A DNA stretch of 55,572 bases from a virus (Duplodnaviria; Caudoviricetes). The translations under genes were made by a program, and so were the position numbers. Location: positions 1-55,572 of IMG/VR virus record IMGVR_UViG_3300043413_000016. The stretch is one strand, 5' to 3'. The notes under the pieces were generated by a model, which had not been told where the DNA came from, did not search any database, and saw nothing but the letters and a program-made list of their open reading frames with translations. The stretch's first letter is position 1; each line of letters opens with the position of its first letter. Below are positions 3,014-32,900 of the stretch, in pieces.

Positions 3014-4557
3014 GCCGCAGCACCACCGCGTGTCTCGCCCCAGTTGTCAGGCATGGGCCGGCTGGCGCTCTTTGCGCGGCCGTACCGCTGCCGAATCAGC
3101 CAGTTGTTGTGCTGCCCACGAATCTTGTCTGCAACTTCGCGTGAGCACTCTTTCGGCGTGGTGTTCTCGTAACGCGCCTTGGCGGGCTCGCCAACCAAAC
3201 TGGCGTAGATGCCCTGAGCCATCTTCTGCGCGTGCAGGTCGTCGCGGGGGTTGCATCTCTCTCGCACGTACCAGCAAACCTGGGGCCACAGTTCACGGCG
3301 CAGCATGCCCGCGTCTTTGGTGGCGATCAGTTCCTTTAGCGTGCCTGGAACGTGCTGTACCGTCACCCGCTTGGGGTATTCATGCCCGCAGGCCGGGCAG
3401 AATGGCATAGGCTTGTGCAAATGCCCGCAGGCTTGGCACTTGACAGGTTCTGCCTCAGGCTTCTTCTCTGGCTTCTTCTTGTCCTTGGCCTCCCCGTCGT
3501 CCAGTTCGTCCAGGCCGTTGTCGAAAAAGTCTTCGGTGTCAACCCAAAAGCGGGCCATGTTCCCTGAGTGGCAAAGAACGAGGCAATCATTCTTGCCTTC
3601 AGCGATGCGCAGGCCGCGACCTAAAAGCTGAATATGCTCGGCCAAGCTCTTGCGCAACGGCCGGGCCATGATGATGCAGGAAACGTCAGGAATATCGAAT
3701 CCACGCGATGCGGCCGTAACCGTGATGAGGCCCTTGATTGCGCTGTCGGCCTTGCGGAACTCCAACGTCACGTCGCAACGATCTTCCTCGCTATCGAGAT
3801 AGGTGTAGCTGGCGACGTTGATTCCAGCCGCCAAAAATTGGCGCTGCAGTTCCTGAACGTGCGCAGTGTCTACGGCGCTGCAAATGAATTTCCGGTTCTC
3901 GCCATGCTTCAGGTACTCGGCAACAACATCGCCCACCACTTCCAGCGCCTTCTTGCTGGCCTGGGTGTCGTCCCATTCGCCAGTGGACTTCACCGTCACG
4001 CCGCTCATGTCGGGCTCAACGCAAGAAAATACCCGGTAGCTTGAAAGCCAGTTCTGCTCGATCAGCGCGCGGGTCGTGGTCACGTTGATGACAGTATCGA
4101 ACCACTTGCCCAGGCCCTTTGTAAACGGCGTTGCGGTCAGCCCAATGACGATGGACGCGCCGCTTTCCAGCCGCTTTTTGTGTGTGGCGTGCAAAACGTG
4201 CGCCTCGTCAAACACGTCCACCTGGGTTTCAGGCCACATGCGCCGGCCCAGCGTTTGCACACTGCATAGTTGCAGCGGTAGCGATGGGCGAAATCGGAAG
4301 TGGCCACCCTGAATAACGCCATGATCCAGGCCGTAACGGTCAAAGGTGTCGCTGGTCTGTTGAACCAGCGATAACCGGTCCACCACGAAACTGGCGCGCT
4401 TACCCTTTTCCTTGACCATCTCCATGAGAGCTGACGCCAGCACCGTTTTGCCGCCACCTGTTGGCGCGACAATCAGGATGCGCCGCTTACCCTGGCGCAC
4501 TGCTTCGCGGGCCTGCTGGAACGCATAAGCTTGGTAGTCCCGAAGTTCGATCTTCAT
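3010..4557 (-). CDS. SF2 DEAH helicase with C-terminal zinc finger
   Basis: LRDYQ, PTGGGKT, DEAH, TATP, QLLGRGLR, CxxC...CPAC; ATG 4557 overlaps the upstream stop. Confidence 0.95.
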   Translation of the reverse strand: MKIELRDYQAYAFQQAREAVRQGKRRILIVAPTGGGKTVLASALMEMVKEKGKRASFVVDRLSLVQQTSDTFDRYGLDHGVIQGGHFRFRPSLPLQLCSVQTLGRRMWPETQVDVFDEAHVLHATHKKRLESGASIVIGLTATPFTKGLGKWFDTVINVTTTRALIEQNWLSSYRVFSCVEPDMSGVTVKSTGEWDDTQASKKALEVVGDVVAEYLKHGENRKFICSAVDTAHVQELQRQFLAAGINVASYTYLDSEEDRCDVTLEFRKADSAIKGLITVTAASRGFDIPDVSCIIMARPLRKSLAEHIQLLGRGLRIAEGKNDCLVLCHSGNMARFWVDTEDFFDNGLDELDDGEAKDKKKPEKKPEAEPVKCQACGHLHKPMPFCPACGHEYPKRVTVQHVPGTLKELIATKDAGMLRRELWPQVCWYVRERCNPRDDLHAQKMAQGIYASLVGEPAKARYENTTPKECSREVADKIRGQHNNWLIRQRYGRAKSASRPMPDNWGETRGGAAA

Positions 4558-7937: not shown

Positions 7938-8249
7938 TGGGCCGCCACTCTGCTGCTGCCGTTGTCGTGGCGCTGCTCAACATGGTCATTCTGGCCCTGC
8001 TTCTGCGCGCAGGCTTGGCGCTGTGGGTTGACTGCGGCAAAGCCTGCGGCGCAAAGGCGCGCGCCAAGCAAACCCAAGAACGACCGAAGGATGCTCGATG
8101 AAGCAAGCCAACAACCTGGGCGCCATGCTGCTGGCCAGCGGCGCCGTCACCGGCCCATACCGGCGCACCAAGCCGCTGCCCGTGAGTGCTGCGCGGCGTG
8201 TTTGGCGCGCGGTGCGGGCGTACATCCGAAACATGACAAAGGAGATCCT

Positions 8250-8912
8250 GTGAACGATCAAGCAATGGCTGCGCTTTATTCCGCGCTGGCCCAGGCGCAA
8301 GCCGAGTTCCAGCCGATCACGAAGAACCGTGAAGTGATGATCACCATGAAGTCGGGCGGCAAATACAAGTTTCGCTACGCCGACCTTGATGAAATCAACC
8401 TGCGCACCAGGCCAGCACTGACCAAGTACGGACTGGGCCTGATGCAGATTGTCAGCAGCGAGCCTAGCGGGGCTACGTTCATCGAAACCCGCCTGACCCA
8501 CAAGGACGGCGGCAGCGTGTCGGCCCGCCTGGACATCAAGGGCCCGCGCGAGTACCCCGACCCCAAGGAGTTTGGCGCCGTGGTCAGCTATCTGCGCCGC
8601 TACCAAGTTACGCCGATGCTGGGCGTGGCCGCTGATGACGACATTGACCAGCGCCCGCGCCACCCGACCGGCGACCAAGACGACGGCGGCAGGCAAGACG
8701 ATGACGGCTCTGAAGTGAGCGCCATCGTCAACGAACTGATCGCCAAGGCCAGCGCAGTCACCACCGACGCCGAAGCCCTCAAGTTCTGGAAGGACAACAA
8801 CGGCAAGTTGGCGCGCTGGCCGAACGCGCACGCCGAGTTCAAGCAGGCCGTGGCCAACCAGCGCAGCCGCATTGCCGAAGCAGCCAAGACGACGGCAGGG
8901 GCCGCGTCATGA
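8250..8912 (+). CDS. erf: ERF-family single-strand annealing protein
   Basis: ALAQAQAEF...YKFRYADLDEI...GAVVSYLRRY...DDD; GGAG RBS before GTG 8250. Confidence 0.9.
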   Translation: MNDQAMAALYSALAQAQAEFQPITKNREVMITMKSGGKYKFRYADLDEINLRTRPALTKYGLGLMQIVSSEPSGATFIETRLTHKDGGSVSARLDIKGPREYPDPKEFGAVVSYLRRYQVTPMLGVAADDDIDQRPRHPTGDQDDGGRQDDDGSEVSAIVNELIAKASAVTTDAEALKFWKDNNGKLARWPNAHAEFKQAVANQRSRIAEAAKTTAGAAS

Positions 8913-11406: not shown

Positions 11407-12117
11407 ATGACCCTGATTCGCAAACCAAAACCCGACGGCCGCAAGAGCGGCGCGTACATCGGATACGGCGCAATGGCCCAGCTGCTGGTTGTGCTGAAGG
11501 AACCGCAGACGGCAATCAGCGCAGCCGAAATCACTGGGGTCCACCCGTTGGCGCTGAAGCCGCTGTTCAAGCAGTTCATGGCCCTCAATCTGCTGGATAG
11601 AGTTGGATGGAACGGCTCAAAGCGCGGTTTCGCCTCCCCAATCTATCGCATTGGAACGGGCCAGCGCTACCCCGCGCCGATCATGCGCAACGGCCAGCCG
11701 CAGACGCACGCCGATCACATGCCGCCACTGCGCCCGCGCGTTGTGGCATTCGCCAGCATCGTGCACGCCTTGCAACAGGGCCCCTCGCCGATCTCCGAGA
11801 TATGCCATCAGTCAGGCGTGCAGGAGTCAAACCTGCGCCCGGCCATGCGAGCACTGCACAAGGGCCGGCTGATCTACAGGGCGGCATATGAGCGCCTGAC
11901 GCCTCGTGCATCAATATCGACCCTTTGGGCCTGGGGCTCTGGTCCAGACGCCAAGAGGCCGCCAAAAAAGGCCAGGGTCTACGTCACTGCCGCCACAACA
12001 AAAGCGCCACGGAGTTCGTGGACTGTGGCGGTGGCGGCCCTGAAGCGACAAGCCGGGATCGCGCGGCCTTCGTGCCGAGAGATCGCACAGCAACCTGGCG
12101 CAGAGATGCAGCCATGA
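11407..12117 (+). CDS. tandem winged-HTH protein
   Basis: Two wHTH-like segments (TAISAAEITGV...; PISEICHQSGV...LHKGRLI). Confidence 0.6.
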   Translation: MTLIRKPKPDGRKSGAYIGYGAMAQLLVVLKEPQTAISAAEITGVHPLALKPLFKQFMALNLLDRVGWNGSKRGFASPIYRIGTGQRYPAPIMRNGQPQTHADHMPPLRPRVVAFASIVHALQQGPSPISEICHQSGVQESNLRPAMRALHKGRLIYRAAYERLTPRASISTLWAWGSGPDAKRPPKKARVYVTAATTKAPRSSWTVAVAALKRQAGIARPSCREIAQQPGAEMQP

Positions 12118-12368
12118 GCAGAGACTGCGAACACGGACAGCTTGCCAGGAGCTGCGACCGCTGCGCAGACGCGGCAGAGATCGCAGATTTACACCAGCAA
12201 CTGGCCGCAGAGCGCAAGCGGTGCTCGAAGCTGCGCCGCCTGCTGCAAGAAGCCGACGTCTTGTTTACACCGCTGTGCAAAGACGCCACTGCGTGGAACT
12301 GGTTGGATGAGGCGCGGGCCTCTTGCAGAGATGTCGCGCGACAGCCTCACGTAGAGATGCAGCCATGA
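12114..12368 (+). CDS. hypothetical protein (CEHG..RSC..C motif)
   Basis: ATGA overlaps at both ends. Confidence 0.75.
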   Translation: MSRDCEHGQLARSCDRCADAAEIADLHQQLAAERKRCSKLRRLLQEADVLFTPLCKDATAWNWLDEARASCRDVARQPHVEMQP

Positions 12369-12613
12369 ACATGCAGCAGCTTCGGCGCCGACAGGCAGCA
12401 CGCCAGCTTGAACACTCGCGCATCTGGGCGCCTGACCGCTTCGACGTGCGCTACAGCGACCGAGACGAGGAAGACAACTACTTCCACGACGACGATGGCG
12501 AGGTGCGCAACGTGACTTGCAAGCACTGCCACGGTACGGGCGGCGACCCGTGGAACGACGGCATCTTGCCGTGCGAGCACTGCGACGGCGAAGGCTACGA
12601 GTGGTGGAAGTGA
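12365..12613 (+). CDS. DnaJ-type zinc-finger protein
   Basis: CKHCHGTG...CEHCDGEG. Confidence 0.75.
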   Translation: MNMQQLRRRQAARQLEHSRIWAPDRFDVRYSDRDEEDNYFHDDDGEVRNVTCKHCHGTGGDPWNDGILPCEHCDGEGYEWWK

Positions 12614-12620
12614 ACCTGAA

Positions 12621-12724
12621 GCCGAACGTGGTGGTAACGCGGGCCCAAAAGCGCGAGCCACTGCCGGAATGACCAGCGAGAGCGAGGCCCGCTTTTGGGG
12701 CTCGCGTTGACCAACCTGTTCGGC
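12621..12724 (-). mobile_element. attC-like recombination site 1
   Basis: GCCGAAC...GTTCGGC ends; arms GGT-AACGCG / CGCGTTGACC with the extra base in the right arm. Confidence 0.85.
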
Positions 12725-12746
12725 CTGGTGCCGAAGCGAAAGGGCG

Positions 12747-13022
12747 ATGAAAATGACGATGGAAGAAGCGCTTCAGATCATGAAAGGCCAGTCAAATGGG
12801 TTTATGGTCTCTTTTGAACGCAGAGATAGTTATGCTCTGGTGAGTGACCACTTTCCGGACGTGAAAAGCGGAGAGCCTGCAATTGAGACCGAGGAAGAAG
12901 CATGGCGGATGGCGAGGCAGTTTGCTGCCAAGACTCAGGGCCGCTGCTTAAACGTGCGCGTTATCCATAGCGATTACTCGCCAGTTTCCAGCAGCATCAA
13001 TCGGGTGATTAAGAACCGATAG
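12747..13022 (+). CDS. cassette hypothetical protein
   Basis: Single ORF between attC1 and attC2, lower GC by eye. Confidence 0.8.
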   Translation: MKMTMEEALQIMKGQSNGFMVSFERRDSYALVSDHFPDVKSGEPAIETEEEAWRMARQFAAKTQGRCLNVRVIHSDYSPVSSSINRVIKNR

Positions 13023-13024
13023 AT

Positions 13025-13093
13025 GCCGAACGCAGAGTTGTGCGGCTCGCCGAAGCGCAGCGTAGGCGAGTCCGAACGAACGCCGGGTTATGC
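13025..13093 (-). mobile_element. attC-like recombination site 2
   Basis: GCCGAAC...GTTATGC; the minus strand reads GCATAAC-CCGGC-GTTCGTTCGGACTCGCC with extra C and A. Confidence 0.85.
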
Positions 13094-13117
13094 CGCTGAT
13101 GGAAACGGAGAACGGGA

Positions 13118-13480
13118 ATGACGGAGGACTACAAGAGCATGTTTGAACAGGCCGTGCGCACGCTGGCCGCGATTGATGATGCACTCGGGATCGGTGGCGA
13201 CGGATGCGGCGACCCTGACCAGACGCTAACCGCGATTGAGGAATTGAAGGCGGCAAAAGTCGTCGCTGGCAGGACGGCGACAGTAACCCGAGAAATGATA
13301 GGCGCAGCGCATGACGTGATGCTGGCGAAAGGCGACTTTGTTCTTTCCGCCAACCTGCTTGAGCGCATTTACGTGGCGATGGATCAGGCAGCGCCGCCAC
13401 CACAAACGCCGTTTGATACTTGCCCGACGTGTGAGGCGCTGGCCCGCACGGTGATGATGGATCAGACGGGTGCGGCATAA
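13118..13480 (+). CDS. cassette hypothetical protein
   Basis: GGAG RBS; stop TAA lies inside GCATAAC. Confidence 0.8.
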   Translation: MTEDYKSMFEQAVRTLAAIDDALGIGGDGCGDPDQTLTAIEELKAAKVVAGRTATVTREMIGAAHDVMLAKGDFVLSANLLERIYVAMDQAAPPPQTPFDTCPTCEALARTVMMDQTGAA

Positions 13481-13568
13481 CGTAGAGGTAACCGGGTGAC
13501 GCCCGAAGAAAGGTTCGATATGCAGACGACGGATGCCAGCGGCACTCCGGTTGACCGCCATGTTAGGC
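13475..13568 (-). mobile_element. attC-like recombination site 3
   Basis: GCATAAC...GTTAGGC; GGT-AACCGG-GTG pairs with CACTCCGGTTGACC. Confidence 0.88.
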
Positions 13569-13879
13569 CACTGCGGCCATACATGTGCTGGTGTGGCGAC
13601 CCTGCAGACGGGGCCGTGCTGGCTTGGGCGCACACCGCGCAGGATGCCCGCAAGCTGGCGTATCCGGCCATTGCAGACTGGACGGATGCGGGCTTCACCG
13701 ACGTGCGCGCCAGGCTGCTGAAGGCCCACCCGGCGTACTACGAGACGCTGAAACTGAAGGACGGCCCGCACGTCAACGACTGCCCGCCGGTGTGCCCGCG
13801 CTGTGAGCAATGGGGCCAGCCGCTACTGCGTAATGGCTACGGCTGCATGCACTGCGGCGATGATGAACCTGTGGCCTAA
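13496..13879 (+). CDS. cassette zinc-finger protein; start lies inside attC3 (GTG 13496 or ATG 13520)
   Basis: CPRC...CMHC; stop TAA inside GCCTAAC. Confidence 0.8.
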   Translation: MTPEERFDMQTTDASGTPVDRHVRPLRPYMCWCGDPADGAVLAWAHTAQDARKLAYPAIADWTDAGFTDVRARLLKAHPAYYETLKLKDGPHVNDCPPVCPRCEQWGQPLLRNGYGCMHCGDDEPVA

Positions 13880-13977
13880 CGTGGGGGCTAAGGCGACCAC
13901 GGCGGCGCAGATAAACAACCCGGAGCGGCGCGCAACCTGTCCGCCGCTGTGGGTCGCCCTTGAGCGACAGGTTAGGC
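13874..13977 (-). mobile_element. attC-like recombination site 4
   Basis: GCCTAAC...GTTAGGC; GCT-AAGG-CGACC pairs with GGTCGCCCTTGAGC. Confidence 0.88.
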
Positions 13978-14003
13978 CACGCTGTGGCCGGAGCGAGAAA
14001 ACG

Positions 14004-14222
14004 ATGGAACACCCGACAACCGCTAAAAACGTGGCGTTCTGGGCACAACTGGTGCTTGCGAACGTGTGGCTGGCGTCGGAGGTCAGATGGTTGGCGCTGC
14101 CGTATATCTTGATGGCGCTGGCGATTCGCCTGCCGCACTGGCTGCGCGCATGGAAGCGGCGCCGCCCAAACCGAGGCTCCAAGACACGATTCTTACCTCC
14201 TTGGAGGCGGGGAAGACCGTGA
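14004..14222 (+). CDS. cassette small membrane protein
   Basis: Two hydrophobic segments after ATG 14004. Confidence 0.6.
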   Translation: MEHPTTAKNVAFWAQLVLANVWLASEVRWLALPYILMALAIRLPHWLRAWKRRRPNRGSKTRFLPPWRRGRP

Positions 14223-14404
14223 CTGTTGGGGAAGTCTGTTCGCTACTTGATGAGAAGGGAATCCACGCCAAACGGGATGTTGTGTACGCGACACTTTTCC
14301 GCCTAGCTGGTTTTGGTTTACTCACTAAGGTTAGCCCTGGTGTATACCTCAGACCGCACGAAAAGCAGCAGCCCATCTTGCCGCCAGATGAGACTGGGGA
14401 ATAG
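14150..14404 (+). CDS. winged-HTH protein or fragment
   Basis: TVGEVCSLL...VYATLFRL...LLTKVSPGVY; low-GC patch; start uncertain. Confidence 0.5.
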   Translation: MEAAPPKPRLQDTILTSLEAGKTVTVGEVCSLLDEKGIHAKRDVVYATLFRLAGFGLLTKVSPGVYLRPHEKQQPILPPDETGE

Positions 14405-14696
14405 CTTTGACTTCGAGAAAAGGCGAACGGCCCACAGGTTCGTACCCTGTGAGCCGTTCTTTTGTTCAACCAATGCCGCGAGAGCAGCGCAGGTCGAGCG
14501 CACCAATCGACCGGAAAGGAAGATCGAGTGCCTAGCAACCACCGCAGGTTCATAACGTAGCGGCGGCGCCAGTGCTCGCATAGTAACTTCGGCGGGCTTG
14601 CCTGTCGAGGAAAAAGTGCGCCGTACTGGTGCTGCCTTGCCACGTCTCAGCCCCTGGCCGAAACCGGCTGGGCCCTGGTGGCCGGAGAGGAAACCG

Positions 14697-14858
14697 ATGA
14701 CGATCACGTTTCAAGGACACGTCGAAGCGCTGGAGGCGGCGGCGCCGTCCCAGGTGGTGGTGAAGCTGCGCACGCCGATTGAACCGGCAGGCGGGCACCA
14801 GATGACGCTTCGCCTTCCGGCGCCTAACGACGAAGCTCAGCCGACAAGGAGGCCATGA
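14697..14858 (+). CDS. short hypothetical protein ending inside attC5
   Basis: GAGAGG RBS; stop overlaps the next ATG. Confidence 0.55.
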   Translation: MTITFQGHVEALEAAAPSQVVVKLRTPIEPAGGHQMTLRLPAPNDEAQPTRRP

Positions 14859-14921
14859 CCATGCACGAACACGAGACACCGCAGCTAGCCGACGCAGGTC
14901 GGCTGGAGCGCCCTGATGGGC
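14822..14921 (-). mobile_element. attC-like recombination site 5 (degenerate inverse core)
   Basis: GCCTAAC...GATGGGC; GCTC-AGCCGAC pairs with GTCGGCTGGAGC. Confidence 0.75.
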
Positions 14922-15196
14922 GGCTGATGGAACAGCGCGCAGCATTTGAGGCATGGCTGAACCCAGGCGGCCACGCGGGCAATGTCTCGCCGTGGGTCGA
15001 ACCCGGCCGCTACGAAAAGGACACGCACCAGCTTGCTTGGCTGGCGTGGCAGCGATGGGAAGATGCGCTGCGGCAGACGTGGCAGATGGTGGACCCGCTG
15101 AAGCCGGCCGGGCAGCCGGGCAGCTACTGGCGCGGCCAGGATGCAGGTATCACCGACGCCTTGACCGCGCTGCGGGCGAACCTCAAGACCGTGTAG
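14855..15196 (+). CDS. cassette hypothetical protein; RBS and ATG inside the attC5 loop
   Basis: AAGGAGG at 14846-14852; RAAFEAW...AWLAWQ motif. Confidence 0.8.
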   Translation: MTMHEHETPQLADAGRLERPDGRLMEQRAAFEAWLNPGGHAGNVSPWVEPGRYEKDTHQLAWLAWQRWEDALRQTWQMVDPLKPAGQPGSYWRGQDAGITDALTALRANLKTV

Positions 15197-15226
15197 AAAC
15201 CAAGTGATTTAACAATAGGATTTGAC

Positions 15227-15487
15227 ATGAACGAAACTCCAGTTCAAAAGGTCGCCCGCTACGTTGCTGAATTTGATTACGAAACAGCTAGGGCACTTCA
15301 GATCGTGGGCGACCGTGTTGCATGGCGTGGGCTTACGAAAGATGAGATCTTGGCAATCTGGAACTTTGGATTTGTTGCGACCATGGAGATGAGGGCGGAT
15401 GTTCGCTTGAAGATTGATTCGCTGCCGACTAAGACGCCTAACGTGGTGGTAACGCGGACCCAAAAGCGCGACGAGGCGCCCGAGTAA
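15227..15487 (+). CDS. hypothetical protein ending in the attC6 loop
   Basis: AGGA RBS; C-terminus PNVVVTRTQKR encoded by the attC arm. Confidence 0.75.
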   Translation: MNETPVQKVARYVAEFDYETARALQIVGDRVAWRGLTKDEILAIWNFGFVATMEMRADVRLKIDSLPTKTPNVVVTRTQKRDEAPE

Positions 15488-15538
15488 CGCCGCCAAAGCT
15501 GGCCCGCTTTTGGGGCTCGCGTTGACCTGATGTTGGGC
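15436..15538 (-). mobile_element. attC-like recombination site 6
   Basis: GCCTAAC...GTTGGGC; arms nearly identical to attC1. Confidence 0.88.
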
Positions 15539-15808
15539 CTGTTGGCAAAGGAGCAGAAATTGGAAAAGTTCGCAGCCTTGAAGAAGGCAAAACTGGATGA
15601 ACCGCACTTCCCGAACGACTATTGGGGCAACAAAAACCCGCGTTGCCCACACTGCGGCACTGAATGCGAAGTCAGCGACAACGACTGGTGGCAACTGTAC
15701 GAAGAAGGCGAGCACGAAGTTTCGTGCCCGCACTGCGACGGCGATTTCACAGTCAGCACGAAAGTTAGCTTCAGCTTCAGCACTGATGAGCAGGACGAAG
15801 ACGATTAG
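15530..15808 (+). CDS. cassette zinc-ribbon protein (start possibly TTG 15560)
   Basis: CPHCG...CPHCD; AAGGAG before 15560. Confidence 0.8.
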   Translation: MLGLLAKEQKLEKFAALKKAKLDEPHFPNDYWGNKNPRCPHCGTECEVSDNDWWQLYEEGEHEVSCPHCDGDFTVSTKVSFSFSTDEQDEDD

Positions 15809-15859
15809 GCCCAACGTGCTATAGGCGACTTGCCACGCTAATTTGCACAAAGTTTAAGC

Positions 15860-16270
15860 ATGCTGCGATTCGGACGGAAGAAACCACAGCGCGACCCCCG
15901 CGCGATGTCAAGAGCCCGCGATGCAACTGCGGCGGCGCTGACTGCTGCGGGTGTTGAGCAGCGCGAAGACGCGGACCAACGCACTGCCTGGCCAGTGATG
16001 TGCGACTTCCCGGGCGTGCGGATTTGCTGGACAGCAACGCCGCGCCGTCGCTACATCACGTATCGGGTGACAGATGACGAAACAGGCAAGCTGGTGATGG
16101 TTGGCACGCCAAAAGCGATCTATGCAGAGGTGGCAAAGCGGCTGCCAGAGGTGCGCCGGCCGCCCAGCAAAGACATGCAGCACTACAGCGCACGCGACGA
16201 AGCAGACGCCGCAGCGGCGCAGCTAGCGCCTGCGCAGCTGAATTATCCAGAAATATCCTGGAAACGATAA
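15860..16270 (+). CDS. hypothetical protein, last rightward gene
   Basis: ORF converging on the lysis genes. Confidence 0.6.
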   Translation: MLRFGRKKPQRDPRAMSRARDATAAALTAAGVEQREDADQRTAWPVMCDFPGVRICWTATPRRRYITYRVTDDETGKLVMVGTPKAIYAEVAKRLPEVRRPPSKDMQHYSARDEADAAAAQLAPAQLNYPEISWKR

Positions 16271-16330
16271 AACGATAACTCGCCAAATTTTTGTATATTT
16301 CTTTGGCGGTGCGGCATGCTGAGTAACTGT

Positions 16331-16669
16331 TTATGGCCTGCGCTCAAAGTGGGGTACATCTTTAAAAGACTTCCAGAAGCCGCCCCATGCGTTTTTTGGG
16401 TGCAAGCTCTGCCAATACTCGCCCAGCGGTGTCAGTGTCGGCACGTCGTAGCACAGCCGCCCGTCAACAAACACGTTGAGGTCAATCGCGCAGCGCCGTA
16501 GGTGGTTGCTGTGCAGGGTCTTGCTGCGGCCGGCCCGCACATGAATGGCCTGCTGCTCAGGGGTGCGGTAAAGCTCCCCGCCAGTGACCACGAAACCAAG
16601 TTCATCGGCCTTGTTGAGCAACAGGCACACATGGCGCAGGAATTCGGCTTGTTCTGTTACCAAGCTCAT
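16331..16669 (-). CDS. endolysin, peptidase M15 family
   Basis: RTPEQQ...SNH...AIDL...WGG.W...DVPHFE. Confidence 0.92.
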   Translation of the reverse strand: MSLVTEQAEFLRHVCLLLNKADELGFVVTGGELYRTPEQQAIHVRAGRSKTLHSNHLRRCAIDLNVFVDGRLCYDVPTLTPLGEYWQSLHPKNAWGGFWKSFKDVPHFERRP

Positions 16670-17214
16670 TGTTTGCCACCAAGGGCCGCGATAGTCGCGT
16701 CTTTGGACTGACTGCTGCGGCTGCTGCCCCGGTGCCATTGCAGCACGGTTCCACACAGGGCCATCAGCGCACCCCACACCGCAAAAGCCTGCTCACGGTT
16801 CTGTTCTGGAATGGCAGTAAACATGATCGCTGCGCTCATTGCCAAGGCTGCAAAAATGACGATGAAGTCAATCACATAGCCCGTGTTCTTTGCCAGCCAG
16901 GATGAATTCCCAGACTCTTGAATGCGCGCGTTTGCAGAACGAGAATCTGCAACGTCCGCCAGCTCCGCCTTTTTGGCGTCAAACCACTGCTGGCGCTTTG
17001 CAAGCACAAACGCGTGCAGGTCGTCTTCTCGCTCAGCCTGTAGCTGCTGAAGCCTAATTCTTCCCTCTTCGCTGCCCAGGCTCTGCTCAATATCAACGCC
17101 CAGCTTTTCTTCGATTGCCGCTTTGCCTTTTGCAAGCACCGCGCTGCCAAGCAGGCCCAAGCCTTCGGCCGCCAGCTTTGACGCCAGGCCCTTCAGTGCG
17201 ATGGCGGCAATCAT
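16666..17214 (-). CDS. holin-like membrane protein
   Basis: Two C-terminal TM helices and GSSRSSQSKD tail; adjacent to the endolysin. Confidence 0.7.
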   Translation of the reverse strand: MIAAIALKGLASKLAAEGLGLLGSAVLAKGKAAIEEKLGVDIEQSLGSEEGRIRLQQLQAEREDDLHAFVLAKRQQWFDAKKAELADVADSRSANARIQESGNSSWLAKNTGYVIDFIVIFAALAMSAAIMFTAIPEQNREQAFAVWGALMALCGTVLQWHRGSSRSSQSKDATIAALGGKQ

Positions 17215-23987: not shown

Positions 23988-26900
23988 TCACCCAACCTCC
24001 GCAAACCGCGCACGTTCGCGCAGGAAGTCTTTGCTGTCGGGCAGCGTGATGCCCTGCTCGGTGTTGGCGGTGTTGCGCCGCCTGTTCATCATCGACCGCG
24101 CGATGGTCGTGCTGGTGATCTGCATTTGCGGGTTGGCGCGGTTCCAGTTGGCGATGCGCTCGCGCAGCTCGTCCACCGCTTCCATGTCGCCATCAATGCG
24201 CGCCTTGGCCATCTGCGAAACCAAGCGCTGCCGGCGCTCGTCCAGCGCCGTCTTGGCGTTCATCACGGCGTTGCGGCCCTCGAACATTTCGCTGGCCCTA
24301 GCCGGTGCAAAGCCGCTGAAGCGCCCGATGATCTCGGCTGTGGTAAGTTCCATCAGAGGCTCGCCCGTGTAGCTGGTGATGCCCTCCTGGCCTTCGCGCA
24401 CAGCTTTCAGCGGATCGCGGATGAACTTGGGCACCACCGATTCCACAGCCTTGGAGTAGTCACCGCGCGCCATGTGGTCGGCTGCCGTGTACCAGCCCAG
24501 GATGGTGCCAGCCGTGGGGCCCAGGATGTTGCCCATGTCATTGGCGAAGGCTTCGCGCGGGTTCTCGCCTTCGCGCCCGCCATCGCGCCACCACAGGTCA
24601 CTCAGACTGACCCGGCCGCTGATGTCCCAGGCCGGCATCAGTGCCCGCGGCACACCCCTGGCCATGAACTCGCCCCACTCCTTGTCGGCCAGCATGTTGC
24701 GATACTCGGTCTTCCAGTCCCAGGGCTCTTCATCGTCGCCTTGCAGCGCGTTCACCAAGCCCTGCACTAGCCCGGCAAAGAACGACACCCCGGGCAAGCC
24801 CAAACTGCCAGCCATGGCGCCAGTTACCATGAACGTGGAAAGAAGCTGGTTCCTGGCAATGCGCCGCACTTCTGGGCTCTCGTCCTTCAGGGCTTGGTAC
24901 GCGGCGCGGCCCAGGAAGTAGGTCATGTTCTGACTGAACTGCTTGAACTGCGTCACCACCCGCGCGACGTTGCCCTGCATGTACCGGGCGCGGTTGCTGG
25001 CCGAGTAGTCGAACTGGCTGCGCTTGATGGCTTCGCGCGCCGCATCCATTGCCTTCTCTTCGTTCGCAGATTTGCCCATTTCCAGTCGGTACGCCATCAG
25101 TGCCGTCACTTGGCGATTCATAACCTCTGGAACGTGGAAGGTCCATCCCACGATTCGCATGGCCCGCGCGATGGCAAACGATGCCCTGCTGCGCGCCTGG
25201 TTGCCCACGTCGCGGCTGGTTGCTGATGCCAAGTCGTGCGCCTGGGTCAAGTCGATCACGCCCTCTTCTTGCAGGGTCGAGATGGCCCGGCGCTCGTCGG
25301 CAGAAAGTTTCGGGCTCTGCGCCGCGTTGAAGCCGCTCTTGGCGTTGGGCTTGGCCCCCATGATGTCGGCGTAGGCTTTACCCATGGCAGCCGTGGCCCG
25401 GGTGAAGCCGTATCGCGCGCCGATGTAGGGCAGCGCCACCATGGGGACCTGCAGCATGTTGATAAGGCCGGCCGCTGGCGACAGGCCCAGGTACATGACG
25501 AAGCCCACCTGCGTGGCAGCCGCAGACAACGGGTGCGTGTCTGGGTTCAGGGCCGCGTCATGGCGCTGCGCCAGTTCGCCCAGGATCTGCGAATGCTTGG
25601 TGAAATCGCCCTCGGGTGCGCTCTCAATCTGCTTGTAGGCATCCTCCAGCGCAAACGTCATCTTGTCGCCGTGATTCAACCGGGCGATGTGGCCAGCCGC
25701 GTGGAAGGCGCTCGACGCGAAGCCGCGCATCACGTCAGCAGAGAAGCCGGCTGTGTTCTTGCGGTGCGTGAAGTGCTTGCGGTAGCTCAGGTCAGGCAAC
25801 GCCTTGATGAACAACTGGTTCAGGTCGTCCAGCAACTGCTCCTTCATAGACGTGGGTGAAGCGCCAATGCGGGCCTCTTTCATGTCCATCTTGTCGATGA
25901 CCTGCAGCACGTCACCAATGAACTTGCCCGCTGAGCCATCCATGGCGCGGTTGTACTTCTTGGCCATCTGCAGCTTCACGCTGAAGCCGTCAGCCTCCAG
26001 CGCGCGGGCGGCGGCGGCCTGCTCCCCGGCGTTCTCGTAGGCGGCCACCACGCGCTCGCCGTCGCTGTCGCGGTTGGCGATGACAAGGAAGTCGCCAAAG
26101 CGGTGCAGCGGGAAGTACGGGCCGCCCTGCATGTACTGGTCAAAGCGCTTGCGGATGTCGGCCAGTGCCACGGCACGCTCAGCGCGGTTTTCGATCAGGC
26201 GCGCAATGCGACCCTCCAGCGCCTTGCGCAAGTCGGCAAGCGTACCCGCGTGGAAGTCGCGCACTTTGGCATACATGGCCTGGGCATCCTTGGGCAGCAT
26301 GCGGTACTTGGCGCGCAGCATTGCGTGCGCTTGGCGCTGCTCTTCGGTGGCCCTTGCTGGTGGGTCGTCCTTGTCGGGGTGCACTTGGGCAACCGTCGCA
26401 TCCAGCATCACCCTGGCGAGCCGGTCGTTCACCTCGGCGTCGATCTTGCTCCACTCTTCGTACAGTTCCTCGGCTTTCTGCGCGGCGCCCTGGCGCTCGT
26501 TTTCCATCTGACGGGTCAGGTTGTCGTAGTCCCTGACCGGTGGAATCTCGTCGCCGTACATATCCGCGATCTGGTCGCGGGTCATGGCTCCCAGCCAGAA
26601 CGGGCGGGCGCCTTCGCTGATGGCGCGCACGCGATCTGCTTTGGTCTCGCCGGCTTTGGAGAAGATGCCGCCCTTGGCGTTCAGGAGGTCTTGGGCGGTC
26701 AATTTGCCGGTCGCCCTGCTGATGTCAAAGAACCGCGCCTTCTGCGCATCAGTCAGCATCAAGTCGCTTTGCCGGCTGCCATCTGAGGCCATCACGGCTT
26801 CCAATCCCCGCAGTATCGGCGCATCGCTGCGCAGACCCAGAAGGCCTTTGAGCTTGCTGATGGCTTCGTCAAGCCACACGCCGATGCGCTGCCAAACGCT

Positions 26901-29900
26901 GTCCTTGGTGGCAAACCGGTTGCCCAGCAGGCGCGTAGCGTTCACGGCCCAGAACTCGCTGGGGTTGATAAGTTGGTAGTGCTGGTCGTAGTTCAGGGGG
27001 CCTTGCTGTATGGCCTTCACCAGCGCCTTGTAGGCTTCAAGGTCGCCAGCAATGGCTTTGGTCACGTTGCCCAGCGCTTCGCGTTGCTCTGGCGTTGCGT
27101 TCTTGATGGCCTTTGCCAGCGCCTTGGCCCACTCTCCGCGGATCGCGCTCTGCATCTCCGGCGTCATCATCCGCTCAGCATGGTGCAGGATTTCATGTAC
27201 CGCCGTGCCCACGTTGTCGGCACCTTTGAACAGTCGCACGATCTCGGCCGCTGGGTTGTAGTCGCCAGCAGTGCCGCCTTCGGTCGGCGTGCGAACACTT
27301 ATTGCCAGGCGCTCGGCCAGCGCAGGGTTTTTGTCCAGCGCCCACAAAGCAAAGTCCACAGCCTCGGGGTTGATGTCGCCTTGTCGTCGGGCTCGAATCA
27401 ACCGCTCGCGCACGATGTCAGCGCCACGCTCGCGGTCGCGCATCAGGCGGTTAGCTGCCTTGGTGTCGGAAACATCCTGCATCTGCAACGCAAGGTTGCG
27501 AACGGCCATGGCGAAGTAGGGCTCGCTGATTTCGCCTTGTTCAAGTCGGCGCACCAGCGCAGCCAGTTTGCGGGTGGCCTGCAGGTTTGGAACCTCTGCC
27601 GGCTCGTAGCCCTGGGCTGCCATCTTGGCGCCAATGCGGCTGAGATCTTGGACGGTGAGTTTGCCGGGCGGCTTGCCGGTCAGCGCTGCACCAAGGGCGC
27701 GGCTGTACTTGGCGCCGCCTGAATCCGGCACCGGTTGGTCAATCTCAAGGTCCATCAGGTCAGCAGCACGGGTGTCACCAGCTTCGCGCAGCAGGCTTGC
27801 AACCCTGTCGTCGCCCGATCCGATCACATCGTCAAAGGTTTGGTCGGATTCCTCAAGTGCGGCGCTGAACAAGTCGGCGTCAACGTAGACCACGGGCACA
27901 GCAATGTCCGCCTTCTTCGCTGCCGCCAGCCGATGCGAGCCTGTCAGCGCATAGGTTCCGTTGCCGTTGTCCCAGACAAGGATCGGCCTTCCCTCCCAAC
28001 CGCTTTCTTGCATGCCCGCAACAAGTGTTGCCAGTTTCGCGCGGTCACGCGGGGGATGAATCTCGATGATGCTGCGGGCCTCCAACTCGTCGTCGGGCTG
28101 CATGCTGCGGGTTGTATCACGGCTGAATGCAGGCGCCATGCCCTGGCCCATGCCCTGCCGCGCCATGGCCTGCAGCCCGTCGCGCGCCAACTTGCGCAGC
28201 GTTGCCGGGTCTGCAAGCAGCTTGGCCCGCAGCTTCATGCCAATGCCTGCGGCCTGCAGCGCTTTTGCAAGACCAGCACGCAAGGCAGCCATCAGGTCTT
28301 CAACCCAGCGGCGCAAAGTGCTGGGCACGCGCTCGCGGTCGGCTTGGTACTGCTCCACACTGTACGCGGCCAGCTCCTCAAGCCGCGCCTCGCCGGTCAC
28401 GTCGTCAGGGATGCGGCCGGCTGCCTGCTTGAAGAACCGATTCACCGCGCTGTCGGGTGACTTTGCCAAGGCGTCGATCTTCGCCAGGCGGTCCATCAGG
28501 GCGGTGTAGGTAGCCTCGCCAACCGTGGCGCGCAGCGTGGCATGCAGCGCTTCGTGGTATGCCACGGCAGTGCTGCCCTGGGTCGTGTTGGCTGCAAACA
28601 AGCCAATGGTCCCGTTCTGCGTGACACCAGCGGCATCGGCAGGCATGCCACGGCCTGGGCGGTCGGCAATCGTCAGCAGCCCGGCTTGCTCCAGGACGCC
28701 AATGGCCTCGGGGCTGAACTCGGCTTCAAGGGCGGTGCGAAGGTCGGCGGCGCTTCTTGGCAGGGCAAACAGTTCGTCGTTTTCGCTCAGCGCCTTGAGG
28801 GCGTTGGTTTCAGCTCTACTGCCCGTGCGGCTGTACAGCGCCACGTTGCCAGCGTCGTCGGTGCGGGTCTTCAGTTCGCCAACAAACTCGTCCAGGGCCT
28901 TGTTGATAGCGATGCGTTCTGCGCCCGTTGGGTATGGCCGTTTGAAGCCCCAGGGCGTCAGGATGCCGGCGTTCTCAGGGCCGTAGTTCAGGAACCGGCT
29001 GGTGCCGCCCTGAGTGGCGATCTTGTCTTTCACGTAGCCCTGAAAGGCTCGTGCCGCCATTTCGTGCGGTGTGGTCCAGTAGTCGCCGCCCCGGCCCTGG
29101 TCAAGCTCGCGGGCCTCGCGCGCAAACTCGGTGGGCACCATGCGCTGCTTCTCGGTGCCACTCTGCGCCTCGGCTAGCATCTTCAGGCGCTGGCTGTAGC
29201 GGTTCATGTTGCCACGCAGGCGGTCCATCAGGCCGTTCTGGTTGGTGCCATCGAAGCCGCTGCGCCCGCGCACCTGCTTGTAGATCGCGCTCAGGCGTTC
29301 CAGCGAGTCGTTTGTCCAGCGCGTCACTGCTTTGCTTCCGGTCGGCGTGCTGACGGATGGAACCTTGACAGTCGTCCAGTCGGTCGTGATCGCAAGCATG
29401 TCGCCGTCGATCATGGCCTTGGCAATGGCGTCGAACTCGGCCAGCAGTTCTGCGCTGGCCGGCTTGTTGTTGCGCTTCCAGTAGCGCACGTCCTTCTGTT
29501 CTGACAAGTCGCGGCGCAGGCTGTCCAGGGCTGATGCCAGTTCCTCGCGGGTGGCCCCGGTGAACTTGTCCACCTTGGCCATGTCCTCCACGTAGGTTTC
29601 GGCGCGCTTGGTCATCGTGGTCAGCAACTTCTCGTAAGCCGCGCGCACCTCCGGCCGCACACCAGACCGATTGCGGGTGAAGCCGCCGCTGGCCAAGTCA
29701 TCCGTGGCATCGCTGCTGGTCTTCAGCGAACGGGTGCCGTCCTTGTTGATGACCCAGGTTGCCGATGCTTTGCCGTCCTGCCGGCCAAAGTAGTGGTCCA
29801 GCGCGTGGAACCACTCATGCGCAAGACTGCCAGCGCCGCGCTCTTTGGTCAGGTTGATGACAGCCCGGTCCAGTTCGTAGTGAGCACGGGCGCTGTTCAA

Positions 29901-32900
29901 GCCGTGGCCGCGCGCACCAAACGCTAGCGCAAGGTCGCCGTTCAGGCCAATGGCCTTGGGCGGGATGCCCATCACGTCGGCCAAGTCCATCAGGCCATCC
30001 CAGGCGTCATTCATCAGGGCCTGGCGCTCGTCTTGGTTGTTCCAGTTCCCGAACTCCACGCCGCGCAGGCCAAATGTTTCCTTGAAGTCCTCGCCGCGCA
30101 CGTCGCCATTGCGGCGCGCGGGGCCGGTGCGTTTGCGGTCAGGCGGAAGCGGCAAATCCGCCTCACCAAACGTGGTGTTCGTTTCCACGATGGCTACCGC
30201 GTTCTGCGCCATGTAGGCCATAGCCTCCTCGCGGGTGTCGAACTGCTGTTCAACCACCTTCACGCGCTTGCGGTCGCTGATGTCGCGCCAGATTTCGTAC
30301 TTGCCGTCGCTGGTGGGGACAGGCCTGTGCTTCAAGCCCACGGCTGCTATGGGCACAAAGGCGTCGGCTTCTTCTTTGGTGGCAAAGGTGGTGCGGCCAA
30401 CCTGCTTGGCCTGCCCGCTCCAGTCCAGTGACTTGGTATCGCGGATGATCCACCGGCCGGCGTCTTTCACCTCGCCAAGCATGCCGCCTGGGGTGACGAT
30501 TTCGCTGACCTGGAAGCGCCGCGCCCAGGCCGGGCGGTCGTCGTCAGACTTGCGCCGCGTGGTGCCGGTGCTGACTGCAGTGTCCTTGCGGGCACCGCCG
30601 ATCTTCTCGCCCACGTCCTGAATGGTGGCCTGCACCCCTGCCGCTGGCTTGTCTGCTGCGGCCTGGTGGGTGGGTGCGGCCGGCGCATCAAACAGCCCAC
30701 CCTGCCCCGCAGCCGCGCCAACATCAACAGCCCTGTCACTGCCAGTCAGCGTGAACTCGTCGCGCTCGGCGTCGGCCTTGGCTTTGTCGGCCAGCCGGCG
30801 CTGCTCTTTGGCGTCATCTGCTGCTGCGCGGGCTTCGCGGTCGGCGCGGGCGCGCAGGCCTTCGGCGTCCTGGGCTTCGAGGGTCAGCCCTTCGGCTTGG
30901 GTGTCAGCCCGCGCCGCAGCGCCTCGATCTTCAGCAGCCGCTGCCGCTTCTTCGGGTCCATTCGCGCCAGCTTCAGCAGCGCTTGCTTTCGCAGTCCCTC
31001 GGGCTTCTTCTTTGGCAAGTTCATCAGCAATCTCCTGTTCCGTGAAGCCCATGGCGCGCATGCCTTCTTCCATGCTGACCACGGCGCCCAGCGGCGCGTC
31101 GAAGTCCGTCAGGTCGTCATCTGTGAAGGCGGCAATCTCTGCCCTGCTGAAGCCCTCTTCGTTCATGATGGCTTCGCGCTCGGCCTCCAACTCGGCGGCG
31201 GCCTGGCCTGCTGTTCCTGCAGTTGCTGGCGCCGGGCTCGCTTCTGGTCGCGCGGCTTCAGGGGCTTGCTGTGGTGGTGCTGCATTGGCTGCCTTCTTGG
31301 CATCGACTCGCTGGCGCAGGGTTGGTGCAACCTGTTCAGTTTTGGCCGTTTTCTGTACAGGTTGCGCTGACGTGCCTACGGCAGGGCCTGTTTCTATACC
31401 TGTCAGCGCTTTTTGAACCTTCGGCCAGCGGTCGTCTCTGCTCAGAACAACTTGGGCATTGCCCTCTGGGCCACGAATGGCGACAAAGCCATCGCCAGCC
31501 GACACCACGGTGTAGGGCTTGCCGTCCATGGTGAATGTGCGGCCAGGGGTCACTTTCTCACTGGAAGATTTACCAGTGAGCGCCGGTTCTGCCGGCTGCG
31601 GGGCTGCGGTCGGCTTGACCACATCAGCCGCCGTGGTGCCGCGCGTGTTGTTGGGCTGCACTTGCTGCCCGGCTGGGCCCAGGGTCGTGGGTTGCGGGCG
31701 CACCACCCAGCCGCCTGCCACCTTGACGATGTTCTCGATGCCTAGGCCTTCGCGCTTGGCGCGCACCACCGCCCCCGACTGCGCGCCATATGGCATGCCG
31801 TCCTGCGTTGTGAGGTCTTGAGGCTCGATGACTTCGGCATCAATCGCGGCGGCCTGGCCGGCGGGAATGCCTTTAAACTCAGTTGCTTCGCCAACGGGTG
31901 CCATTTCCGTGGCCTCACCCGCTGGAACCGCATCAAACTCTGTGGCGTCCGCTGTTGGCACGCGACGCACAGGCGCCGGCATGGCGTCCAGTTGATTTTG
32001 AGCCGAGCGCCTGACGTGCGCCGGTGCAGTCTGGCTGGTTCCGAGCGATGCAAGGCGGATGGCTTCGCTTTGCTGCTCAGGGTCAAGTTGCCTGATTTCG
32101 CTCAGGATGGGCGCGTTGGCGCGTCGCGCGTCTTGGGCCGATGCAACGGCATCAGGCGCCGGCCGCAATGCGTCCTGCGCGCGCTGCATCAAGGGCACGC
32201 TGGTTGCCTTCATGGCGGCGGCCACGGCTTCGTCGGGCGTAGTGGCAGTTTGCAGTTCCTGCATGCCCTGGTCGGCCTGAGCTGCCTGCTCGACCTGCGT
32301 ACGTGGCTTGGCAATGCCCAGGGCGCCGCCCATCAGGCCACCGGCCATGCCTTCCATCGTGGCGCTGGAGTAGACCCCGGCCATCGGGTCCACGTTGAAG
32401 CCTTCATTGGCCAGCGCGGTGTTGGTGGCGAATTTCTCCTGCCCGCCCTGCAGCGCCTCGGGCCCGGCTTCAGCCGCCGCGCCGCCAATGATGCGCCGCG
32501 CTGCGCCTGGCGCTGCGTTGCGGGCGCCCTGCATCAGCGACTGGGCCACTCGCTCAACACCTGAACCACCAGCCAGCGCGCCGAGTGCGCCGCCAAGGGC
32601 AATCTGCCCGGTGTTGGGGCCGGTGTAGCTCTGCGCCTGGGCGGCCACCTGGGCGGCTTCTTCGGGCGTGGCGCCGGCTTCGGTCAGGCCTCGGCCCACT
32701 TCCTCGTAGATGTTGCCCTTGATGTTGCCCACGCCCTGGGCTGCACCAACAGCAGCCGGGGCCAGCCGGCCAGCCAGCAGCGCTTGGCCACCGGGGACCA
32801 TCGCGGCGGCCACGGTCGGGGCCATGGTGCCGGCCGCCTGGGCAATCATCTGCCCGGGTGCAACGCCGAAGGCCCGCACACCGGCAATGACCTGATTCAG

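Follow-up and report, generated by a model that had tools for sequence, protein, structure and literature searches.

A 55,572-bp Caudoviricetes record of a freshwater phage from IMG/VR (IMGVR_UViG_3300043413_000016), referred to over its full length as the window, carries between positions 12621 and 15538 a row of integron attC sites that are turned around relative to their genes. In bacterial integrons, the genes lie on the top strand of attC and the site stands behind the gene. In the window, an integrase-less cassette array of reversed gene polarity probably forms part of an early plus-strand operon of a tailed phage. The array comprises five attC sites that are intact and one that is degenerate (s5), a lone half-site follows further on (15809-15815), and every plausible gene between 12.6 and 15.8 kb lies on the plus strand. 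The record has direct terminal repeats at its ends and encodes a large terminase subunit, a portal, a major head protein, an ERF-family protein, a helicase and a polyvalent protein of 3090 amino acids (aa).

Six hairpins on the plus strand

An Rfam scan of the window returned zero families, attC included, and covariance models were made here instead. The first, R1, was built from five sites of the window on the plus strand, and the second, R2, from the 150 best bacterial sites alone; since these bacterial sites were first gathered with R1, R2 is not fully independent of it. The parts of the array are given below, with R' and R'' denoting the left and right boxes of each site and ORF an open reading frame.

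attC s1: 12621-12724, plus strand; R' GCCGAAC, R'' GTTCGGC, 104 nt; R1 108.5 bits (training site), R2 58.7 bits on plus against 11.2 on minus
ORF c1: 12747-13022, plus strand; cassette, 91 aa, without a family match
attC s2: 13025-13093, plus strand; R' GCCGAAC, R'' GTTATGC, 69 nt; clean extrahelical T and G; R2 46.0 bits on plus
ORF c2: 13118-13480, plus strand; cassette, 120 aa; stop codon TAA inside the s3 R' box; first third in common with viral locus L056
attC s3: 13475-13568, plus strand; R' GCATAAC, R'' GTTAGGC, 94 nt; start codon of c3 in the loop; R2 64.5 bits on plus against 17.9 on minus
ORF c3: 13520-13879, plus strand; cassette, 119 aa; runs from the s3 loop through its 3' arm to the TAA in the s4 R' box
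attC s4: 13874-13977, plus strand; R' GCCTAAC, R'' GTTAGGC, 104 nt; three right-arm bulges (G, C and G); R2 57.7 bits on plus against 12.1 on minus
Content of cassette 4: 14004-14459, plus strand; overlapping ORFs 14004-14222 and 14066-14404, then a terminator-like hairpin at 14425-14459
attC s5, degenerate: 14822-14921, plus strand; R' GCCTAAC, right box GATGGGC; ribosome-binding site and ATG of c5b in the loop; R1 21.5 bits, R2 28.3 bits
ORF c5b: 14855-15196, plus strand; 113 aa; 3' part in common with viral locus L061, where it stands directly before an attC
ORF c5c: 15227-15487, plus strand; 86 aa; crosses the R' box and left arm of s6, with its stop in the s6 loop
attC s6: 15436-15538, plus strand; R' GCCTAAC, R'' GTTGGGC, 103 nt; R2 51.2 bits on plus against 13.0 on minus; natural variants diverge at 15436 and 15446
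ORF c6, the last cassette: 15530-15808, plus strand; zinc ribbon; phrog_6504 at E 2.6e-7 and a weak Lar-like Pfam match at E 0.037
Array end: 15809-15826, plus strand; lone R'-type box GCCCAAC (exact complement of s6 R''), then GTGC TATAGGC; candidate attI-like junction

A sequence-only reading of this DNA had described six plus-strand hairpins with an unpaired extra base in the right (3') arm, and this observation is confirmed: one or more such bases were seen in each of the six sites (arms GGTAAC/GTTGACC in s1, s3 and s6; GTTGT/ACGAAC in s2; GCTAAG/CTTGAGC in s4; GCTCAG/CTGGAGC in s5). The same reading had placed a second extra base in s2 and s3 only. It is clean in these two, where the 3' arm runs through a bulged T, six paired bases, a bulged G, three paired bases, a 5-nt spacer and GTTRRRY, yet the model alignments show s1 and s6 to carry the same T and G beside one mismatch. 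The extrahelical G is thus present in all six sites and the T, at a spacing of 6 bp, in four of them (s1, s2, s3 and s6). The count of six attC sites likewise stands only in part, as five are intact and s5 has GATGGGC where the right box should start with GTT. All left heptamers end in AAC (GCCGAAC, GCATAAC or GCCTAAC), and this triplet pairs with GTT in five of the six sites, s5 having GAT; the strict R/Y consensus of the boxes is loose at one or two positions. With 69-104 nt and a 5-nt spacer, the sites lie within the size range of attC (57-141 bp, spacer of 5-6 nt). Taken alone, the fold z-scores were modest (-4.95, -0.18, -2.01, -2.27, -1.21 and -3.52). Decamers of the class GCCNAACGTG occur four times in the window (s1, s4, s6 and the lone box at 15809) against 0.92 expected, a count reached in 0 of 100 shuffles.

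The coding strand as the bottom strand

According to the portion of PMC5027507 that we drew on, the bottom strand of attC has the AAC triplet in R', carries an extrahelical G and T on the opposite arm at 6-bp spacing, and is more stable by ~2 kcal/mol. The plus strand of the window shows all three of these features; when both strands were folded, it was the more stable in six of six sites, by a mean of 2.2 kcal/mol. The covariance models agreed. R2 found the six sites with 28.3-64.5 bits on the plus strand against 11.2-17.9 on the minus strand, and over the whole 55.6 kb at E<=1 its plus-strand matches were these six only, with one extra match on the minus strand (10.2 bits, 25705-25739). Over both models, minus-strand scores ranged from 11 to 26 bits, against 21-108 (R1) and 28-65 (R2) on the plus strand. 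A weak plus-strand match of R1 at 1959-2062, far from the array (18.7 bits, E 0.0026), was absent from R2 at E<=1 and is probably due to chance.

The strand calls were validated on sites of established polarity. In R100, where aadA1 lies on the minus strand, R1 matched the aadA1 attC on the plus strand only (23.4 bits, E 1.2e-5; runner-up 7.9), with coinciding T and G bulges in the alignment, and R2 gave this site 44.6 bits, again on the strand opposite the gene. In phage TJE1, R2 recovered the three published attC sites, all opposite to the TJE1 gene strand. The sequence-only reading had taken canonical attC to have its extra bases in the left arm, behind the gene; the R100 aadA1 attC, viewed on the coding strand, fits this, as does the consulted part of PMC5027507.

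A specific motif scan of genome contigs yielded 65 bacterial stretches, from Methylococcales, Rhodocyclaceae, Thiobacillus, Burkholderiales, Pseudomonadales, Blastocatellia and others, in which R1 found 274 sites. Around eight intI genes in five genomes, all 67 R1 rows (51 distinct sites, some being listed twice in overlapping stretches) were on the intI-sense strand and upstream of the gene; such matches occurred at seven of the eight loci, and the other strand and the other side had none. In a standard divergent integron, the intI-sense strand upstream of intI is the bottom strand.

We trust the strand calls of R1 and R2 because they hold for aadA1, for TJE1 and for the 51 intI-adjacent sites. 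The six sites are placed on the plus strand by the bacterial model, which picks the gene-opposite strand in R100 and TJE1, and R1 picks the intI-sense strand upstream of intI; this supports the phage coding strand as the canonical bottom, recombinogenic strand. The sequence-only reading had proposed as much, and neither model scored the plus strand as the top strand. As judged by the models, the hairpins truly belong to an attC family that freshwater Proteobacteria commonly carry in their chromosomal integrons.

Reversed polarity in viral arrays

A loose motif scan of viral contigs gave 105 stretches, by estimate roughly the number expected by chance, and was filtered with the model; R1 then found 126 sites among the 47 sources searched. 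In ~20 viral contigs, the sites form arrays of 3-11, invariably on one strand. One of the array-bearing viral genomes is complete: it spans 35.9 kb, ends in direct terminal repeats and has 11 sites.

To assign the gene strand, we counted family matches at E<=1e-4 for one ORF per cassette and strand, the longest one with 60 aa or more. The results were opposite in viruses and bacteria. In viral arrays, 87 ORFs on the model-hit (bottom) strand matched 55 PHROG families and 59 ORFs on the opposite strand matched none, whereas in bacterial arrays of the same attC family, 53 ORFs on the model-hit strand matched no Pfam family and 74 ORFs on the opposite strand matched 29. The viral cassette families (E down to 9e-106) include DNA methyltransferases, a Mom-like protein, Lar-like restriction alleviation proteins, a DHH phosphoesterase, exonucleases and an HNH nuclease; those of bacterial cassettes include HicA, GNAT, cupin, ABM and MAPEG. 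The longest-ORF rule alone pointed the same way, with 66 viral cassettes on the model strand and 22 on the opposite strand (n=91) against 8 and 61 for bacterial cassettes (n=70). Coding-strand heuristics based on third-position GC content (GC3), skew and the longest ORF were noisy (17 against 24 in Blastocatellia arrays), and family matches were used in their place.

In a canonical cassette, the ORF lies on the top strand and the site behind it; the window and the related viral arrays have neither arrangement. With at least two attC sites on one strand, less than 4 kb apart and free of an integrase, the window is an attC cluster that has no integrase (CALIN). Since TJE1 has canonical polarity, the reversal is a property of this array family and not of phage arrays in general.

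When cassette ORFs of the viral arrays were compared with bacterial loci, matches beyond those of ~15-35 residues over attC were found only in L125, L169, L121 and L166, and typical chromosomal arrays gave zero matches. These four loci look like phage-type arrays in metagenome-assembled genomes. Three of them (L125, a 155-kb contig of a Burkholderiales genome, L169 and L121) have the top model scores and cassette proteins up to 95% identical to those of viral arrays, in the same polarity, and may be prophages or mis-binned phage contigs; the L125 genome has two intI genes, both on other contigs. Separately, L072 (5702-8080) and L011 (119-2505) overlap at 95.5% identity and belong to one phage lineage, which in combination has two attC arrays with a DNA-methyltransferase-like gene between them.

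Signs of exchange at the left-hand box

By its known chemistry, the integron integrase (IntI) cleaves 5'-RYYYAA|C-3' in the folded bottom strand. If the core triplet is cleaved in this way, the right box of a site should match the left box across the ORF and not its own left box. Among 74 viral pairs, the right box paired better with the left box of the next site in 34 and with the left box of its own site in 9, with 5 ties and 26 uninformative pairs; a wrong-neighbour control gave 14 against 27, and bacterial arrays gave 19 against 8. All three informative cases in the window follow the pattern: s2 R'' with s3 R', s3 R'' with s4 R', and s6 R'' (GTTGGGC) with the lone GCCCAAC at 15809-15815, which begins directly past the stop codon of the last ORF.

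Natural variants point to the left-hand box. We compared contigs of four metagenome runs with positions 11500-16800 and listed seven loose ends, among them ends on both sides of the predicted cut at 15441|15442. Contigs from X6 and X8 are identical to the window from 15436 on, that is, over s6 and the start of c6, with unrelated sequence before 15436, and another X8 contig keeps c5c up to 15446 and then apparently enters a different attC. Because the X6 and X8 contigs keep s6 with c6 and part from c5c, s6 appears to be linked in its movement to the gene that follows it, not to the one that precedes it. The lone left-type box at 15809 and the contig breaks at 15436 and 15446 thus lend indirect support to the proposal of the sequence-only reading that each attC lies upstream of its own gene with the crossover at RYYYAA|C. 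None of the seven listed loose ends falls at the right-hand GTT (15532-15538), where that reading would have failed. Taken together, the exchange points are indirectly supported as lying in the left-hand box.

Three other candidates for exchange were set aside. The apparent break between L011 and L072 is merely the end of a locus. In L024 and L104, two different attC leaders precede one ORF body, whose end lies close to the following R' box; the case is uninformative. The differences between L013 and L082 are gene insertions without attC.

The downstream end of the array

A lone left-type box RYYYAAC, followed by N4-5 and TATAG, ends five viral arrays downstream.

Array-end motif RYYYAAC-N4-5-TATAG(R/C)C: window 15809-15826; L011 3854; L022 7406 (minus strand); L052 4183; L108 336

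TATAGRC has a single occurrence in the whole window. Searching the ends of arrays, we found a downstream RYYYAAC partner in 8 of 18 and an upstream GTTRRRY partner in 6 of 19. The upstream right-type partners were rejected as array ends, as five or six of the seven folded sit in complete weak hairpins (L098 has none); only the downstream lone boxes are for this reason informative. In R100, L191, L186 and L188, junction regions similar to the TATAG junction lie 140-200 nt upstream of intI, the likeness being to the attI junction region of bacterial integrons in bottom-strand sense. The TATAG junction may be an attI-like site; just as plausibly, it belongs to the promoter or leader of the gene downstream, if that gene is conserved, and the ORF at 15860-16270, just beyond the array end, has a 39% identical relative in L075.

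Sites woven into the genes

The sites are closely interlaced with the reading frames. In 41 of 113 viral sites, the loop contains both a ribosome-binding site and a start codon, from which an ORF of at least 50 aa runs through the 3' arm, and 30 of these 41 ORFs use the frame that reads GTT as valine. At 30 of the 113 sites, the upstream ORF stops at the TAA of the R' box. The window has examples of each kind, with the stops of c2 and c3 in the R' boxes of s3 and s4, the starts of c3 and c5b in the loops of s3 and s5, and the end of c5c in the s6 loop. The translated 3' arm forms a recurring N-terminal peptide, ..G.P(L/V)(E/D)R.VR(P/R).., for example ..PLERQVRP.., and one protein body (HLLRYGYAPGNYMNTCQRCG...) bears two different loop-derived leaders, in L024 and L104.

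Such interlacing could mean that the hairpins are fossil or co-opted derivatives of attC that no longer recombine and are kept for their roles in the mRNA when transcribed in the sense of the bottom strand, as stops, ribosome-binding sites, starts, or for stabilisation or processing. The predominance of one frame among the loop starts, the fusion of s5 into a gene with loss of its GTT, and the lack of an integrase in the phage all speak for this. We nevertheless regard it as unlikely. Across 117 viral sites, AAC with GTT was conserved in 117, while 110 kept the bulged G and 112 the bulged T, figures that are biased upward since the sites were picked by the model; these features would be useless in a plain RNA hairpin. 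The preference of the right box for its partner across the ORF is unexpected for hairpins that stay in place, and the variants break at the left box of s6. A role in the mRNA and a role in recombination are not exclusive.

Proposed mechanism with a host integrase

A complete integron has intI adjoining its array, and neither the integron integrase model TIGR02249 nor the tyrosine recombinase family PF00589 gave a match anywhere in the 55.6 kb. The TIGR02249 cut-off was reached in none of six viral records, the window among them, and PF00589 matched one of five, the window not being that one. In bacterial genomes with the same attC family, IntI was found above the curated cut-off in 5 of 5 and 4 of 5 tested, including the Burkholderiales genome whose 155-kb contig has cassettes in common with viral arrays.

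From these observations, we propose the following mechanism. The cut would fall at RYYYAA|C, and the mobile unit would consist of the remainder of attC, the downstream ORF and the next RYYYAA; since the unit runs from one cut to the next RYYYAA, the site would stand in front of its own gene. An attC often provides the previous gene with its stop (the TAA in GCCTAAC), and some give their own gene its ribosome-binding site, start codon and first ~15 codons. Downstream, the array closes in a lone RYYYAAC junction similar to the attI end of bacterial integrons. Because the phage is without a tyrosine recombinase, exchange would need the IntI of the host, acting in trans during infection. The cassette pool (methyltransferases, Mom-like and Lar-like proteins, exonucleases, HNH) could then serve as a set of shufflable counter-defence and accessory genes. 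Reversed polarity would separate the phage and host pools in expression, as cassettes captured either way would be antisense; as the sequence-only reading suggested, the phage cassettes would be expressed in the phage and silent in a host integron.

In its widest form, this proposal is tentative: phages of integron-bearing freshwater bacteria may keep a mirror-image integron, made of an attI-like site and a reverse-polarity pool, that is shuffled by the SOS-induced IntI of the host, with the reversal being functional. Speculatively, the reversal could act as an expression firewall, such that captured host defence or toxin cassettes stay antisense. Equally speculatively, with genes co-directional with the fork, the bottom strands would lie on the lagging-strand template and favour a fast turnover of anti-restriction genes. 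The parts of PMC8946536 and PMC13108822 used here report that a bottom strand on the lagging-strand template raises recombination, and that bacteria avoid this configuration.

Weighing the alternatives

An enzyme other than IntI, such as an ERF annealing protein or an HNH or homing nuclease, might shuffle genes at the hairpins as hot spots; this is less probable still than loss of the recombination role. The promoter-stem-loop cassettes of T4-type phages are an analogue of such hot spots. An ERF-family protein is encoded in the window (7962-8912), the cassette ORFs include HNH nucleases and exonucleases, and one loose end, at 13921, lies within the loop of a site. Similarity between viral arrays is mostly confined to the ~100-nt sites, which would favour homologous exchange between them. 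Against this, the exact recognition geometry of IntI is kept, as it is next to bacterial intI, the box-partner signature and the lone junction fit core-triplet cleavage, and none of the results requires a phage enzyme.

That the polarity was miscalled, so that the plus strand is the top strand of an ordinary array with attC behind each gene, is highly improbable. Every site does stand directly behind an ORF, with stop codons within or close to the left box as an ordinary cassette would have them, and the box-partner test is symmetric. But both models favour the plus strand over the minus strand, and they pick the gene-opposite strand at aadA1, at TJE1 and next to intI; the AAC triplet faces the extrahelical bases, a left-type box stands alone where the array ends, and the variants part c5c from s6 and keep s6 together with c6.

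Several points weigh against the preferred reading of a reverse-polarity array exchanging cassettes at the left-hand box. First, the ~20 viral arrays were all found with the motif of one attC family and may share a single origin, so that they need not be independent; their recurrence is then no proof of repeated selection, which is the main weakness. A search with the large terminase subunit of the window against five other array-bearing viral records gave zero matches, and, being without a positive control, shows little. Second, the longest-ORF rule was weak at intI-linked arrays (17 on the model strand against 24 opposite, n=41), and s5 is degenerate. Third, nine viral pairs favour their own box, and the symmetry of the partner test leaves left-box and right-box crossover indistinguishable by it. 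Fourth, the contig evidence comes from one study with short contigs, in which breaks beside a conserved repeat could also arise from related phages or from assembly. Further loose ends lie within genes (13249/13280 and 15120) and in the s4 loop, and a gene insertion free of attC distinguishes L013 from L082, two contigs that are nearly identical; much of the local gene flux thus appears independent of attC. Few cassettes are common to different viral arrays, so turnover by site-specific exchange is untraceable there, and recombination itself was not directly observed.

The cassette c2 is a mosaic (13105-13251 and about 13250-13280): only its first third is common to L056, at 84% nucleotide identity, and X8 contigs break at 13249 and 13280. 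This pattern indicates an intragenic exchange that was apparently independent of attC.

Other features of the window

Apart from the zinc ribbon of c6, none of the cassette proteins of the window has an informative family. A blastn search with positions 11500-16500 against 50,697 phage records returned zero matches, and related loci sought with the 515-aa protein upstream of the array numbered just two, neither of which covers an array. Scans for terminator and promoter consensus gave chance levels, and the hairpins are without T-tracts. Within cassette 4, after its terminator-like hairpin, 14548-14650 may be a decayed site (TCATAAC GTAGC and a 12-bp stem with two G-T pairs); its right box and bulges are both missing, and R1 and R2 are silent there. 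Just upstream of the array, a 60-nt direct repeat with 77% identity (12061-12120 and 12312-12371) spans two successive stop/start overlaps (..AGAGATGCAGCCATGA..) of small Cys-rich ORFs. The 3090-aa ORF (23988-33260, minus strand) has the large polyvalent protein domains LPD39 and LPD1.

Relation to known systems

The integron model assumes a fixed polarity, in which a promoterless gene with attC behind it is read from the cassette promoter (Pc); the window and its relatives hold a whole pool the other way round, in integrase-less phages. Should these units be moved by host IntI, integron integrases would serve both sides of the arms race, that of the phage and that of the bacterium, and surveys that presume canonical polarity would mis-assign gene-attC pairs in such arrays. 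The arrays would also form a catalogue of candidate counter-defence genes and a natural test case of how attC orientation relative to transcription and replication tunes recombination. In viral locus L061, ~60 nt ending at oriented position 4513, upstream of the first detected site, are near-identical to the bottom strand of the R100 aadA1 attC, with stem, loop and T/G bulges alike. This aadA-type site ties the environmental phage pool to the attC type of clinical class 1 integrons.

Phage-borne attC clusters, and their recombination by IntI1, are already known from Qi et al. 2023 (PMC9892861), whose accessible text states that IntI1 recombined five of six published phage attC sites with attI1. 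Searches of the literature and of that accessible text found no description of phage arrays with reversed polarity, and the words "opposite", "antisense" and "upstream" do not occur in the text; the 17 CALINs of its supplement may bear on the point.

The window has its attC family in common with bacterial integrons, and likewise the site geometry (R', 5-nt spacer, L', variable loop, L'' with bulged G and T, R'') and a lone junction at one end. Unlike them, it is without intI, has its genes on the bottom strand, would be transcribed toward the attI-like end and has gene starts within attC loops. The CALINs of virulent phages, such as that of Tetrasphaera phage TJE1 (PMC9892861, in the part consulted), resemble it as integrase-less attC arrays in tailed phages with DNA methyltransferase cassettes. 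The three sites of TJE1 lie opposite its genes, in canonical fashion, whereas those of the window and the related viral contigs lie on the gene strand.

Own-promoter cassettes of sedentary chromosomal integrons, for example those of toxin-antitoxin genes, are likewise expressed independently of Pc, and the sections of PMC13108822 and PMC5027507 that we used treat them as exceptions to the polarity rule. They are scattered within canonical arrays, while in the phage arrays every gene is reversed, as a whole set that would be read by phage transcription. Finally, the inverted superintegron of Vibrio cholerae and the leading-strand bias of attC (PMC13108822 and PMC8946536, as far as excerpted) also concern the placement of the bottom strand relative to a cellular process, and there the orientation of the bottom strand sets the recombination rate. 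In Vibrio cholerae, the whole array was flipped with respect to replication; in the phage arrays, it is the sites that are flipped with respect to the genes.

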